This document shows, in pieces, positions 36,001-51,000 of a DNA stretch of 64,000 nt. How positions within the stretch are numbered: position 1 is the first letter of the stretch; each line of letters opens with the position of its first letter. The position numbers were made by a program. Source of the stretch: a plasmid; assembly GCF_054482595.1 (NCBI RefSeq), contig NZ_JBTHVH010000004.1; one strand, given 5' to 3'.

Positions 36001-39000
36001 ACGCCAGTGGGAAAATTATGAAAGACGCTAATGGAAAGGACCTCTGTTACAACTACGAAGAAATTAAGAGTATGCCTGATGCATGTAGTTCTTATAAAAA
36101 TGATGCAGCATGTGTACTCGATAAACAAACATGTGCAGAGGGTTGGTTCGATGAGGGCACTAACAGCTGCTACATGTATGAACAGAAATACACCTGTGAC
36201 AGAGGTAAGGATGTAGTTCGTGAGGTTGAATCTTCTACAAATGCCTGTGTTGGCATGATCCCATGTTCTGGAGGAACATGCGAAACTGGGCCAAAGGAAG
36301 AGAACAACGATTTTGGAAAAGTTGCGGCTTATTCAAACATGGTTCAGTACATGCAGGGCGAAGCCAAATGCGAAGACCCTAACGATGCCAATTCCTGTTC
36401 TGTCTTTGAAGGAAAACCTGAATGGTGTGGTCGTTCAGTAGGCTTTGTAAATGGCCTGGCAAAGACGGACTGCTGCGAAGCACCGCAGGGAACCGCAGGA
36501 GCACTTGAAGGTATCATGCTTGCCGGATCTATGATCAGAAACACTAACTGGACCAGAGTTAATGCTCAGCTAATAAAATGGACCGGCGGTGATACAGGTA
36601 CATGGGCTTCTATGTCCAATGCGGTCGGTGAGTGGACTGCATCAGCTGGTAAAACAGTAGGGCAAATGTGGAACAATGTCACGAGCTCCTTAACGAGCGT
36701 ATATGAAAACGTCGCTGGTAATCTAAGCAGGGCAGTTGGGTCTTCCGCAACTTCTGGAGGGGCAGGAGGTGCTGGCCAGTTGGCACAGGAAACAATGTCC
36801 AGCTTCGGTATAGGTCAGCTTAAGCAGATGGCAATGAAGAAAGCCTACGAATTGCTACCAGATACAGTTCGAGACTTTGTCTTTAAGAACGTTGCTACTA
36901 CCGGAGGAGAGGTTGTCTTCTCGGCTGCGGTTCAAAACTTTATGCTTGCATTAAACGTGATCGGTTGGATTTATACAGCCTATCAGGTCACTAAAATGCT
37001 TTTAGAAATGTTGGTAGCATGCGACCAGAAAGAGATGGAAGCTTCTATTCATAAGAATCAAAAATCCTGTTTTACATTAGATACGGAACGATGCGTCAAA
37101 TATCTGAATGTTGGTTTCACAAAGAAATGCGTTAAAAAAGCAACAGACATGTGCTGTTATAATTCCATGTTGTCACGCGTTATTATGCAACAAGCTTATC
37201 CGCAATTAGGAATAGACCCTGTCGCCTCTAATTGCGTGGGGCTATCAATAAAGCAAATACAGCAACTGGATTTCGATAAAATTGATCTGACGGAGTGGAT
37301 TAATGATGCAGTTCAGGTAGGAGAAGTTCCTGATCAATATTCAAAATTCTCCGAAGAATCAATTGTGGAAAACTTACCATTCCAGAATGAGAACTATCAA
37401 CTTCCATCAGAACGTACCAAGGAAGCAATGGGCGGTGAAGAAAATATGATAAAGGCCAGACAAGAAAATGCTCAGGCTATAAAAGAGGAAAATGTAGATT
37501 GTAGCTATTTACCTCGACCGGCCATATGTGAGGTAGGTTCAACTACGCTGGATCCGGTTACGGGCAAGCAGTTGCCGAAATATTGAAGAAGGGGCCGTTA
37601 GGCCCCTTTTTTAATTACTTGGCTTTCAATGTTTTTTCTGGGAAGCCTTTTTTACCGTATTCACCGGTAAAGAGGTAATAATCTTTTCCGTTGATGGAGG
37701 CTGCAACACCCCCTGGAGTTGTTGTATTTGGGCTATCAGAACGGAAAATGATACCCGAAAAATCAGCGCTTGTTTCGTTTCCTTTAAATGGGATGAACAC
37801 ATAACGAATTACAGCGTAATCACCAGCGGGAAGGTTTAGCTGAGGAGTTTCGGTTCCTGTTGCGGGGCGAATCGCCTGAAAGCTGTACATTGAATCTGTA
37901 GGGAAAACATCAGCATCAGGCTTAGAGGGCAGATCACAGGTACTCCATTTATTGACGACTGCCATATCAATTTTACATGTGGCCAGAGCTGCTTTCTGTT
38001 TTTCAGGGTTGTATCCAAATGAGGCCTGAGTTGCTTTTGTATGCTCAAAAACATACTTAGCTCCTTCACGTACCAAACTTTCATCATTGTAAGGCAATTT
38101 TTTTGGATTGGGGACGAACACTAGGTATTGATTGACCTGGATGTATTCGGCGTCAGAAGAACTGTACAAAGAGCCGAGGCTCATGATCCCAAAACCTTTT
38201 AGACCGCCTGTTACGTAGCCCATCGAACTATTGATGAGATACTTAGAAAGAAAGTTGTCGGCATCCCCTCCAGGAGTAACCTCTTGCTCCTTAAAATTAA
38301 CGTCGAAACCAGCAAACGAATAGGCATTCTTGGCGACAGAATCATTTGCTTTAGCATGCCAGTACTGGCCGTGACTGTACGCATTCAGAGCGGTGCCTGG
38401 CGTAGTGCCGGTGTCACCGGCACAACCCGATAGGGAAAAACCAATGACGACAGAAGAGACCAGAGATACTAAACGTAAAAGTTTCATTTAAAGCCCTTTT
38501 TGTAATGTCTTTTGGAGATGGAACCATTATTCCATAGTCACGCGTTTCACAAACAACCTGATTGCATAAAAAAGGAAAAAAAGTGATTTCCAGTAGAACC
38601 AGCAGTACACAAGAAAAGCGCTTTTATAAAAATGTATAATTATTAAAACGAAGTAATGAGGTTGAAATGGGTAAGCCAACAGAAGAGCAAAGACCTGTTA
38701 TCGAGAATGCTAGCGCAAACAATATGGTGATAGCAGCGCCTGGATCAGGCAAATCATTCACCATGATAGAAGCGGTTATATCGATTCTCAAAAAGTATCC
38801 ATATGCAAGAATCGGGATGGTGACCTTTACTCGCGCTGCAACAAACGCACTTGCAGCAAAGTTACAAAAGCGATTGAGCAAGAAGGATCTTGACCGGGTG
38901 CTGGTGGATACTTTTCACGGACTCGTTAAGAAGCAACTGGACATGATTCGCTGGCCGGGAAAGATGTTGATAGGGCCAGCACAGAGATCTGTCATTCACC

Positions 39001-48000: not shown

Positions 48001-51000
48001 AAAGTCGGTGCGATGCATAAAGTCCGTATTTTCGGACGTGTTGGTGAAGTTATAAGCAATGATAGCCCTCAGGAAAGAATCTTCCGCGAAGTCACTATAG
48101 CGGAGGGTAATAGCCAGCAGGCTGCGTTACTTGTAGATAACTACATACAGTGTCTTGAGAATAATGGCTTCACGACTGAAGCATAAATGTTGAGGGCCCC
48201 CGGGCCCTCTTTCTTAAATTCTGCGTTGTGGGTTTCTCCCTGTCTTCTGCACCGCAGAAGGCATTGAGAAACTCACAATGCCAGATAAGAGAGATCATCA
48301 TGACTTATGCATCCCCGGCTCTTCGTCGTAATCCACAGGAAGTATCTGAACACTTTATTAAACTCGTTCATGCTCGAATTGCTGAAGTGTCTGGCTGGAA
48401 GTATATATTCGAAAGAATACCTGCTTTCAAAGACGCTTGTGCAAAAGCCCCGAGCCAGGTTCCTTGCCCGTTTACTGGCGCAGGGAAATCGAAGTTTCGT
48501 TTCCGACAAAAAGACCTTTATACCGGATGTGCGATCCATAATGACTTTCCGGTAAATGAGTTTTGCGACGGAATTGATGTTCTGGCGAAATATTATGAAT
48601 TAAGTAAAACGCAGACTTGCAAAAAGATTCTCTCAGATTTTTTCGGGATGGATCTGCATGCTCCGTTAACTGACGCCGACATTGAAAATGAACGACGCTA
48701 TAAATCAGCAGTTCGTGCCACAGAAACTCTTGACCGAGAGGAAGTGGCAAAGCGAATGCGAAAACTTGATGTGATGTATCACTATACCGGTGAAATCAAG
48801 CCTAATACTCCTGTTGCTTTGTACCTCCGTAATCGTGGGATCTCCCGCTTACTGAGTCACTTACCAAAGGATTTAGGCTTTAATAACCGGATCTACTATT
48901 GGGATAAAGATAAGCAGAAATCGATTATCTATCCGGGAATGATTGCGATCTATCGTGACACCCGAGGTCGGCCTCTGACTATTCATAGAACATACGTAGA
49001 CAAAAATGGTGATAAGGCACCTGTAGAAAATCCAAAGCTGATGATGAAGCCTCCTGCCGATATGACAGGTGGCTCAATTCAGTTGTTTGACCCTCACTAT
49101 GATTCAGGTAGTTCGACCTGGACACTGGGAGTGGCTGAAGGGATCGAGAACGCGCTTTCTGTTGTAGAAGCGACTTCAACACCATGCTGGGCAGCCAGCT
49201 CCGCATGGTGCCTTGAAAACGTTACTGTTCCTGATTTTTTACTGCCTCCGCCGGATGTAAAATCTATAAACTTTTATATCTGGGCGGATAAGGATATTGC
49301 TAACTCACAAGGCACTCGTGCCGGTATTGAAGCTGCTCAGCGACTTCAAAGCCGCATGGTTGAGTTTTTGGCTAAACGATATCCCGCATCAAAGCTGACA
49401 ATTGAAGTCTTCGAACCAGCACAAGATATTCCTGATGGGAAAAAGGGTATCGACTGGAACGATGTTCTCCAGTTAACAGGGCAGGATGGATTCCCGATTC
49501 ACTGGGCTCCTGAATGTCTTAATCAGCTGTAACAACGATAACTCCCCCGCTTTTTGCGGGGGGGGTTATCTTATCAATATTATATTTTAAAATTGTATTG
49601 ATAAGATAACCGCTTTCCTTCGTGATAATTACCTGCCTTTAAGGTCTTTTCACGGCTGAGATGCTTGCTCAGTTAAATAAATGTGCGGTACTACTGGCTA
49701 TGGTCGGTTGTATGACATGGTTATTCCATAAACTATTAAAACCCATAACGGGAGTATTACCGTTATGGTGATGCTCGTCGTTTTACATCGGAGAGCATTT
49801 TAATGAATTTTCAAATTAACGAAGTTTTTAATAAATTTGCTGCTGTTATAAAATCGCGCATCGTCAATGAACCATCGTCATGCTATTTGCTGCATGATAA
49901 TGAGATAGATATAACGATTTTGAAACATAGCATATTAGAAAATGACAGAAACCTGTTGTACGTAGTTCGTCCTTCAGGAACGTGTTTGTTGCGTTGTGAC
50001 AAATATTTCTATCCGAAATATTATCTTCGTTGCCGTGGAGATTATAAGTCATTCATATATGTCCATCTTGATCTACATAGTGGTGAAGCTAAAGAAATCA
50101 CATGGGAGCAAGCAGACGATATGCTGTCTAGTCCAGGAAAACCCCCATTAAAAGGGAATCTTGGACGATTTGAGTATATAAAAGTTGTGGTTGAGGACCT
50201 TCGTATTCGAGGTTACGCTGATTATCTTCCTGCGTATAATCTTGATGACCTTCGCCGTTTTGCCTTACAGGACGACCGCCCATCCCTTGTCAGATACATT
50301 GACAATGTCATGGCAACGGTCTGATTGATTGCTAATTGATTTACATATTTTCCCTGATGGCCAACCTGCATCAGGGAGGCCTCAATAACGAATGGAGGCT
50401 GTATGAAGTTAGCTACGGACCTGGTAAAAGCTATTTTGATTAGAAATGGCGTTGAACCAGTAAATATAAGCGAATCATCTAAGTTATCTTTGAAACAACC
50501 ACTGACAGAACTTAAATTCAGTTTATATTTGCGAACTGAGCATTTATCTCACTTCCTACCCGGTTATGTTTATTCTATAAAAGAATGTCCACTGTCATAT
50601 GACATCGGGATCGAAATTCAGAAAATCTTCGAAAGTTTACATTTGTTAAACGAAGAATTTGAATCCCTCGGTTTTGTTTCTGTATGGATAGAAATGCATC
50701 AAAGCATTTTTGAACAAAGTCGGTTTAAGAAAAGTAACTTTACTTTTCGGGAGGAAGAGGTCGAGCTTGCTAAAGGGCTTGTTTGTTCTCACAATTCACA
50801 AATAAGTAATGCGGCTTATTTCTGGCTTCAGCACTTTGAGGAGTTTATGATTTATGTTCGTAATAAGCTTATCGACCTCTTTCGAGAGGCCTATGACCTG
50901 ATCCTTGGAATGCAGCAAGTATTTTTCATTCGGGAAAAGGAAGAGCTGTTGAAAACTATAAGTTATGGCGATGAGCTGTATGAGGTGAAATTCATGGCGG

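Follow-up and report, generated by a model that had tools for sequence, protein, structure and literature searches.

Background

The IncHI plasmids rank among the major vehicles of multidrug and colistin resistance in Salmonella, E. coli and Enterobacter. Downstream of the transfer gene trhN, the IncHI2 plasmid analysed here carries a long run of co-oriented genes for a helicase, an AAA+ ATPase, a vWA protein, a primase-like protein and several hypothetical proteins, which raises the question of what such an assembly does for the plasmid. The analysis covers a 64,000-nt stretch of contig NZ_JBTHVH010000004.1 (assembly GCF_054482595.1), hereafter the window, in which positions are counted from the first letter. 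An initial annotation had described a co-oriented module at 38667-49532 on an IncHI conjugative plasmid, with four recognisable proteins and five unknown genes. It offered establishment, anti-defence or defence as possible roles, left open whether the block is core or cargo, and regarded the function as unassignable from sequence.

Here we present the gene content, the distribution and the closest characterised relative of this block. On balance, we favour a role in DNA processing, establishment and host-defence evasion (anti-restriction) for the transferred plasmid, a reading that we consider moderately probable. The block comprises the following genes:

38667..40451, + strand: trhI, a UvrD/PcrA-type SF1A helicase of 594 aa with its core motifs intact
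40846..41718, + strand: o290, a protein of 290 aa with one C-terminal hydrophobic anchor, NWLHIAGIACLVVCTFMYV, read directly from the sequence
41776..42153, + strand: o125, a probable divergent SSB/PriB-like OB-fold protein
42214..43191, + strand: o325, with an internally duplicated α/β domain of ~110 aa (internal repeat E=3e-11)
43249..44307, + strand: CobS/NorQ-class AAA_5 ATPase of 352 aa, in the same synteny group as IncC Vcrx089
44439..44612, + strand: o57, a small RefSeq coding sequence between the AAA gene and the DUF3150 gene
44676..45803, + strand: DUF3150 protein of 375 aa, an obligate neighbour of the AAA/vWA pair
45881..47893, + strand: CobT-like vWA protein of 670 aa, with an N-terminal domain, an acidic linker and a C-terminal vWA domain carrying a metal ion-dependent adhesion site (MIDAS)
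47965..48186, + strand: o73, a small conserved RefSeq coding sequence with an IncHI3 homologue (E=3.7e-6)
48300..49532, + strand: DnaG/P4-type primase-like protein (toprim), with a degenerate Zn-ribbon, DUF7146 and Toprim_3

The block is core IncHI backbone

Ten coding sequences, all on the + strand, lie within 38667-49532, in agreement with the extent and orientation first annotated. In identical plasmids RefSeq names them trhI, three hypothetical proteins, AAA family ATPase, a 57-aa hypothetical protein, DUF3150, VWA, a 73-aa hypothetical protein and toprim. The five genes previously counted as unknown (o290, o125, o325, the DUF3150 gene and o73) are all present, and the 57-aa open reading frame (ORF) at 44439-44612 adds a sixth. 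Over this block, many plasmids of Escherichia and Salmonella that are typed IncHI2 match at 100% identity, which bears out the assignment to an IncHI conjugative plasmid; IncHI1 plasmids are ~75% identical over its first 8 kb.

Across plasmid records, the block occurs 1125 times at ≥95% identity and 281 times at 60-80%, while the transfer gene trhN occurs 1117 and 216 times, respectively. The ten-gene order is identical in IncHI1 and is kept in the IncHI3/IncHI1B lineage of Klebsiella although the ATPase there is only 52% identical. Because the block is found as often as trhN, with one gene order throughout IncHI1, IncHI2 and IncHI3, it is core IncHI2 backbone and not cargo. The comparison with related IncHI backbones that the initial annotation had proposed is thereby answered, and its cargo option falls away. 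That annotation had also said that its interpretation would fail if the block were universally conserved backbone with a demonstrated housekeeping role; the universal conservation is what we find, and the demonstrated housekeeping role is not.

Across IncHI2, trhN (window 34398-37586) varies more than the block itself: 669 records match it at ≥99% identity and 448 at 95-99%, against 1123 records at ≥99% for 38667-49532. The greater variability of trhN is consistent with diversifying selection acting on the TraN adhesin, and several records have IS2/IS3 elements inserted within the gene.

An AAA_5–DUF3150–vWA kernel travels with MOBH elements

At the centre of the block is an ATPase that matches Pfam AAA_5 (6e-27), with intact Walker A (GESGSGKT, 103-110) and Walker B (LILLDEVD, 165-172) motifs. 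Its residues 43-300 align with the CobS structure 9ujv (2e-8), and it also matches NorQ (2e-9) and CbbQ (3.5e-5); a Pfam scan detected no CbbQ_C domain in it. The vWA protein matches Pfam VWA (1.5e-6), the chelatase-subunit region of TIGR02442 (1.6e-8), PHROG 1576 and PHROG 17276 ('CobT'), and its orthologue in the metagenomic locus L012 matches Pfam CobT. Its MIDAS is complete (DISAS, 507-511; TPTG, 578-581; ITDG, 604-607), and 37% of the 155-residue linker at aa 246-400 is Asp or Glu. The combination of an AAA_5 ATPase bearing Walker A and B with a vWA partner bearing the full MIDAS pattern (DxSxS…T…D) places the two among the MoxR/CobS-class chaperone pairs, so that the initial calls of a MoxR/CobS-class ATPase and a CobT-like vWA protein both hold.

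One Enterobacter IncHI2 plasmid, NZ_CP091320.1, gives a tblastn match to the AAA protein in two pieces with an IS1B transposase annotated beneath. Its AAA gene reads as a natural insertion mutant and could be informative.

The third member of the kernel is the DUF3150 protein, whose RefSeq start is at 44676, the longest ORF beginning at a TTG at 44664. Its structural model is confident (predicted local distance difference test score, pLDDT, 84) and consists of a ferredoxin-like domain followed by helical bundles. The model gave no specific structural relative, and sequence searches with either the single sequence or a 98-sequence profile gave no match among solved structures. A library of 1.8 billion protein clusters contains 118 representatives of the family. 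It is absent from 50,697 phage records, phages carrying only the CobS-like ATPase of the trio. Among plasmids, 971 of the 1107 records matching the IncC DUF3150 protein are typed conjugative.

By protein searches and neighbourhood look-ups, the AAA_5–DUF3150–vWA kernel was located in IncC, pAQU1, a Pseudomonas MOBH plasmid, a Shewanella megaplasmid, Citrobacter pF1917-1 and a plasmid of Rhodoferax ferrireducens T118, as well as on Neiella, Enterovibrio and metagenomic contigs. Wherever a kernel-bearing conjugative element examined here was typed, its relaxase was MOBH. The companions of the kernel are all DNA-handling genes: a single-stranded DNA-binding protein (SSB) gene in every case (probably o125 in IncHI) and, variably, a TrhI-type helicase, a Toprim primase or Bet/Exo. 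The kernel most often lies directly after traN. In Neiella and Enterovibrio the layout is that of IncHI, namely TraN, a reverse-strand gene, a TrhI orthologue, a bona fide SSB, AAA_5, a small gene, DUF3150 and vWA. The Rhodoferax plasmid has an MPF_T rather than an MPF_F mating pore, yet its relaxase is MOBH and the module sits beside FlhD/C-like activator genes, mobH and traD; it is therefore the MOBH DNA-processing lineage, rather than the type of pilus, that the module accompanies. No homologue of FlhD or FlhC, the kind of transfer activator (AcaCD/SetCD) that drives the hde operon of IncC and SXT/R391, was found in the window. The IncHI block is one representative of this module, which is carried along with conjugative elements that have a MOBH relaxase.

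Helicase, primase-like and SSB-like companions

TrhI is co-linear, end to end, with E. coli UvrD (PDB 3lfu, E=7e-32), and motifs I (APGSGKS, aa 24-30), II (DEVQD, 196-200), III (GDDDQAIYSFR, 223-233) and VI (VGFTRA, 551-556) are all present in the alignment, as expected of the UvrD-like SF1 helicase first annotated. It shares this motif set and alignment with the UvrD/Rep/PcrA SF1A helicases, including the host PcrA/UvrD enzymes that serve rolling-circle plasmids and integrative and conjugative elements. However, TrhI is shorter than UvrD (594 vs 720 aa) and scores 155-178 bits on the NCBIfam Rep, UvrD and PcrA models, whose equivalog cut-offs are 911-1144 bits; it is not an equivalog. Its orthologues adjoin traN in the Neiella (E=1e-96) and Enterovibrio (E=8.5e-94) elements and match it far better than UvrD itself does. 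TrhI represents a clade of its own, apart from UvrD/Rep/PcrA and linked to traN in the IncHI, Neiella and Enterovibrio elements.

The toprim protein matches Pfam DUF7146 (1.1e-18), Toprim_3 (2e-11) and PHROG 510 'DNA primase' (1.4e-27), and it retains the Toprim Glu (AEGIE, 279-283) and DxD (ADKD, 329-332), so that the TOPRIM primase-like label also stands. RefSeq places its start at 48300; the longest ORF begins at a GTG at 48228, inside the leader hairpin described below. A Zn-ribbon-like segment, DUF7146, Toprim_3 and the catalytic Glu and DxD are common to it and to the plasmid and phage Toprim primases (N-terminal region of P4 α-type, PHROG 510). It differs from them in having no helicase or C-terminal domain and in the partial loss of its zinc-ribbon cysteines, the segment reading CPFTG instead of the usual CPxCG; its primase activity is a prediction. 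The orthologue in locus L009 matches Zn_Ribbon_Prim weakly. Sequence comparison of the toprim protein with solved structures returned chance matches only.

The protein o125, which the Joint Genome Institute names 'primosomal replication protein N', is probably an SSB-like protein of very divergent sequence. In the PDB its family profile matches one entry only, the OB fold of the Deinococcus radiodurans SSB (E=0.075, aligned 7-104). With the bona fide SSB (PF00436) from the Neiella element as query, o125 is the one ORF of the window that is matched (E=0.0016). o125 also occupies the SSB slot of the related elements.

Evasion of host defence as the favoured function

The characterised relative of the block is the 'host defence evasion' (hde) operon vcrx089-093, defined by a transposon-insertion sequencing (TnSeq) screen of the IncC plasmid pVCR94, in which Vcrx089 is an AAA_5 ATPase (PMC7498323). 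The IncC/SXT hde operon and the IncHI block occupy the same backbone place in the same orientation, after traN and a reverse-strand gene: trhN ends at 37586, the block starts at 38667, and the DUF3150 and vWA genes follow 3' of the ATPase gene on the same strand, as in the hde operon. Both contain an orthologue of the AAA_5 ATPase, DUF3150, vWA and an SSB-type gene (in IncHI the probable SSB-like o125), and both have RNA structure that sequesters a ribosome binding site (RBS). The IncHI and IncC ATPases are recognisably related (tblastn E=2e-19 over 73% of the query; phmmer 7e-24). The IncHI block has no detectable Vcrx090, Bet or Exo, adds TrhI, the Toprim primase, o290 and an o325-family protein, and has its AAA gene adjoining DUF3150, whereas in IncC the two are separated by ssb-bet-exo. 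From its sequence, we take the block to be the IncHI form of the hde-type module of MOBH elements, one that lacks Vcrx090 and Bet/Exo and brings a helicase and a primase of its own.

In IncC, Vcrx089 and Vcrx090 are needed for full transfer into V. cholerae carrying a type I restriction system (PMC7498323). Deletion of vcrx089-090 lowers transfer into V. cholerae 25-fold, and this defect is complemented from the recipient but not from the donor and disappears in a ΔhsdR recipient (PMC7498323). The same deletion raises restriction by EcoKI and EcoBI 400-900-fold (Dimitriu et al. 2024, PMC11602122), and the vcrx089_090 pair is listed in AntiDefenseFinder (PMC11724313). The IncC SSB, Bet and Exo repair CRISPR-Cas breaks (PMC7498323). 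A reverse-transcription primer in vcrx094, by its position the DUF3150 gene, reports the same transcript as the hde operon (PMC7498323). In SXT, the equivalent operon (s089 onward) carries the strongest peak of the transfer activator SetCD in chromatin immunoprecipitation with exonuclease digestion (PMC4344509).

Of the three roles first offered, establishment or anti-defence fits best because synteny (AAA_5–DUF3150–vWA) places the ATPase in one group with Vcrx089, for which, together with Vcrx090, evasion of restriction is documented in IncC. Gene content, intact motifs, core status and the IncC synteny are observations on the block itself, while anti-restriction and action in the recipient come from the IncC papers. 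Since a characterised relative exists, the statement that function cannot be assigned was too pessimistic, although it still applies to DUF3150, vWA, o290 and o325.

From these relationships we infer how the IncHI proteins might act. MOBH relaxases are not known to have a helicase domain of their own; TrhI would supply the unwinding of the plasmid from the nick made by the relaxase. The SSB/PriB-like o125 would coat the incoming single strand and the Toprim primase would prime synthesis of its complement. The CobS-like AAA+ motor and the CobT-like vWA adaptor, with its acidic linker and MIDAS, would form a chelatase-like ATP machine, in which DUF3150 and possibly the o325-family protein are candidate third components. 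In the three-part cobalt chelatase, CobT bridges the CobS ring and its client CobN (bioRxiv 10.64898/2026.07.21.739949). Judged by its orthologues in the IncC/SXT hde operon, the machine would work inside the recipient, early after entry, and would use ATP to remodel or neutralise a host barrier; type I restriction enzymes are the target demonstrated for IncC.

A more specific version of this scheme can be proposed only tentatively, and we rate it as rather improbable: AAA_5–DUF3150–vWA together with the o325-family protein may be a single chelatase-like machine of MOBH elements that disables type I restriction or another barrier by mechanical remodelling and, in IncHI, does so without Vcrx090. 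If true, the mechanism would be unrelated to DNA mimicry, methylation or site avoidance, and an IncHI machine working without Vcrx090 would make DUF3150 and vWA the real, universal partners of the motor.

Several points weigh against assigning the IncC function to the IncHI block. The two ATPases are only 27% identical, and neither Vcrx090 nor its pAQU1 homologue shows similarity to the ORFs of the block by BLASTP, phmmer or hhalign; IncC Bet and Exo match nothing in the window. The SSB assignment of o125 has marginal statistics (E=0.075 and E=0.0016). The IncC TnSeq screen depleted only vcrx089-093 and not the DUF3150 or vWA genes (PMC7498323), and SXT deletions of s067, s068 and s070 shift transfer by ≤10-fold in unrestricted matings (PMC2791158), so that neither element has given a phenotype for DUF3150 or vWA and any contribution of the two is putative. 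The papers cited on the IncC/SXT operon make no mention of IncHI, and we found no IncHI anti-restriction study and no experiment downstream of trhI: the anti-restriction effect has been shown by experiment for the IncC operon, while the IncHI block is known from its sequence.

If the block helps the incoming plasmid to survive restriction and to be converted to double strand, it would partly set host range and would be a target for blocking spread. A specialist is unlikely to be surprised by this assignment. Rather, the block is a testable handle on AAA+ anti-restriction in a clinically dominant plasmid family, of which the plasmid collection holds >1100 near-identical copies. IncHI offers a cleaner system than IncC for a CobS/CobT-like AAA+ anti-restriction machine, with the motor genes adjacent and not mixed with Bet/Exo or Vcrx090, and could help to show how such a mechanism works and what DUF3150 and vWA contribute to it.

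Alternative functions

The alternative that survives best, though we judge it unlikely, is a donor-side accessory of MOBH transfer that counters no defence: AAA+/vWA/DUF3150 would serve to build or remodel the relaxosome or coupling complex, or to unfold proteins such as the primase and the SSB-like protein for delivery through the type IV secretion system. The position of the module directly after traN/trhN or beside mobH-traD, its association with the MOBH relaxase and not the pore type, and the control of the SXT equivalent by the transfer activator (PMC4344509) are all what such an accessory would show, and elsewhere AAA_5/vWA pairs are assembly chaperones (CobST, NorQ, CbbQ). Against it stand the rescue of the IncC homologue from the recipient and not from the donor (PMC7498323) and the effect of SXT deletions in the region, at most 10-fold in unrestricted matings (PMC2791158).

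Less probable still is an accessory of replication or maintenance, that is, a private primosome of helicase, PriB-like protein and primase that would help a very large plasmid to replicate, vegetatively or by rolling circle, with AAA+/vWA as its loader or remodeller. A helicase, an OB-fold protein and a primase in one block would suit this role, as would the strictly core status of the block and the Tus-like terminus-binding gene 3' of it on the same strand. In addition, an evolution experiment in which the multidrug-resistance and Tra1 regions were deleted retained the hypothetical-protein region B3 (terY2–trhI), on the trhI side of Tra2 (PMC9599605). Yet the IncC genes are not among the replication and maintenance genes depleted in both TnSeq conditions (PMC7498323). 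The trio is shared by SXT/R391 elements, whose DNA is replicated as part of the chromosome, and the replicons of IncHI plasmids are located away from the block; both facts likewise count against this explanation.

An anti-phage or anti-plasmid defence system, either an NTP-dependent AAA+/vWA type or a Gabija-like type, appears very unlikely. It was suggested by the occurrence of AAA+/vWA pairs in conflict systems, the premise of the initial annotation, and TrhI does match the PADLOC GajB models at 1e-42. These matches, however, reflect generic UvrD similarity: no GajA/OLD nuclease or other effector is encoded nearby, and the other nine proteins have no meaningful PADLOC match. Gabija proper (GajA plus GajB) was rejected, no neighbour having a PADLOC GajA match. 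Fixed synteny in the transfer backbone of very divergent elements is also not the patchy distribution of cargo, and the characterised homologue counters defence (PMC7498323). The defence option is accordingly not upheld.

That the ATPase and vWA protein form a genuine cobalt or magnesium chelatase (CobS/CobT) as a metabolic auxiliary is barely credible: some records do annotate the pair 'cobS'/'CobT', PHROG 249 is labelled 'porphyrin biosynthesis' and the ATPase aligns with the CobS structure, but the scores fall far short of the family cut-offs (TIGR01650 CobS, 34.4 bits vs 558.55; TIGR02442, 33.5 vs 779.45), none of the ten block proteins, to which this search was confined, is a CobN/BchH-like large subunit, the DUF3150 model has no fold resemblance to CobN/BchH, and the neighbours are DNA-metabolism genes. 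On the strength of the cut-offs and of the missing CobN-type subunit in the block, the metabolic 'CobS/CobT' and 'NirQ' annotations were rejected. What the IncHI trio has in common with CobS–CobT–CobN, NorQ/NorD and CbbQ/CbbO is the architecture, that is, an AAA_5 motor (with an almost end-to-end CobS alignment), an acidic-linker MIDAS vWA adaptor and an obligate third partner. In contrast to CobS–CobT–CobN, its third partner, DUF3150, is of unrelated fold and its setting is DNA transfer, not cofactor synthesis.

Spacer hairpins and transcription units

The initial annotation had all genes of the block linked by structured leaders. The hairpins are real, and terminator-like sites are more numerous than expected (31 found vs 12.8±3.5). 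The trhI gene, however, is probably split off from the rest by a terminator-like hairpin and a promoter-like block. The elements concerned are:

40452..40715, + strand: structured region 3' of trhI, ending in a terminator-like hairpin (40692-40709) and then a T run
40716..40800, + strand: promoter-like block, with a weak -35 (TTGCGT, 40716-40721), an 18-nt spacer, a -10 (TATAAA, 40740-40745) and a conserved leader
41719-41775, 42154-42213, 43192-43248, 44613-44675, 45804-45880, 47894-47964, 50325-50402 and 51282-51336: two-hairpin spacers
48187..48299, + strand: toprim leader, a long near-perfect hairpin directly before the start codon (minimum free energy -61.9 kcal/mol)

The 394-nt spacer 40452-40845 folds at -121.6 kcal/mol (z=-6.95 vs shuffles). 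Within it, 40452-40715 is a cluster of ~8 short hairpins that is ~90% conserved in IncHI1 and partly conserved in IncHI3; this cluster could be an element of the 3' untranslated region or a single-strand initiation site. The stem of the terminator-like hairpin is kept in IncHI1 while its loop differs. A three-way IncHI1/2/3 alignment shows no long invariant stretch in the spacer apart from the promoter-like block, which scores under the cut-off of a consensus promoter scan; its reading as a promoter is putative. Because a terminator-like hairpin followed by a conserved promoter-like block lies 3' of trhI, trhI is probably one transcription unit and o290 to toprim another.

In each later intercistronic spacer, the stop codon is closely followed by a GC-rich hairpin, and the GGAG Shine-Dalgarno sequence of the next gene lies in the 3' arm of another. 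IncHI1 and IncHI3 preserve this two-hairpin arrangement despite sequence changes in both arms. The toprim leader hairpin is likewise present in IncHI1 and IncHI3, with apparent compensatory changes on both arms. The spacer hairpins may serve translational coupling or gating, or mRNA stabilisation. A comparable RBS-sequestering structure precedes vcrx089 in IncC (Roy et al., PMC7498323). A search of Rfam returned no known RNA family in 37000-51000.

Small and lineage-specific genes

The proteins o290, o125, o325, o57 and o73 have no useful match in Pfam, NCBIfam, PHROG or PADLOC. Homologues of o290 occur only in IncHI-like elements, which makes the protein specific to that lineage; one source calls it 'membrane protein', and its sequence indicates a tail anchor. 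In the Neiella element the gene 5' of the AAA gene is a relative of o325 (E=1.3e-6) and also matches its own counterparts in the Shewanella plasmid and in the metagenomic loci L011 and L012. An AlphaFold2 model of o325 (pLDDT 66) had no PDB fold match by Foldseek (E>1). Vcrx090 was considered as a relative of o325, of o290 or of the small post-AAA protein of other elements, and no relation was detectable.

Relatives outside IncHI and IncC carry a conserved protein of 117-183 aa directly 3' of the AAA gene, and one member of this family matches Pfam WGR weakly (8e-3). Its members, by locus, are:

L004: 3479-4021
L007: 2422-2919
L008: 9408-9902
L010: 9575-9928
L011: 3483-4025
L012: 4435-4986

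At the same position, IncHI1 and IncHI2 have an ORF of 57-89 aa and IncHI3 has no annotated gene. The IncHI2 ORF, o57, is 52% identical to the IncHI1 ORF, which is 89 aa long. Both were considered as remnants of the 117-183-aa family, and no relation was detected.

Neighbouring genes

Directly 3' of trhN, on the - strand at 37615-38487, lies a predicted lipoprotein of 290 aa (MKLLRLVSLVSSVVIGFSLSGC…). Its IncC counterpart at that position is Sfx, a 286-aa lipoprotein and surface-exclusion factor that targets TraN (PMC11493245). No sequence similarity between the post-trhN lipoprotein and IncC Sfx was detectable. In the Neiella, Enterovibrio and Pseudomonas elements, too, traN is followed by reverse-strand genes, of 268-305 aa.

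The trhN–trhI interval also receives resistance genes. Typing polymerase chain reaction (PCR) junctions described for IncHI1 relatives include 'cat–trhN' and 'mer–trhI' (PMC3139670); therefore, a Tn9/Tn21 resistance island lies between trhN and trhI, equivalent to window 37587-38666, in several IncHI1 lineages. This island site resembles hotspot 4 (traN–s063) of the SXT/R391 elements.

On the 3' side of the block, the + strand carries two pairs of paralogous hypothetical genes of ~310 aa, 51352-52287/52356-53276 (E=3e-7) and 53343-54281/54453-55409 (E=1e-35), and the co-oriented run of unknown genes extends as far as the Tus-like terminus-binding gene at 58012-58974.

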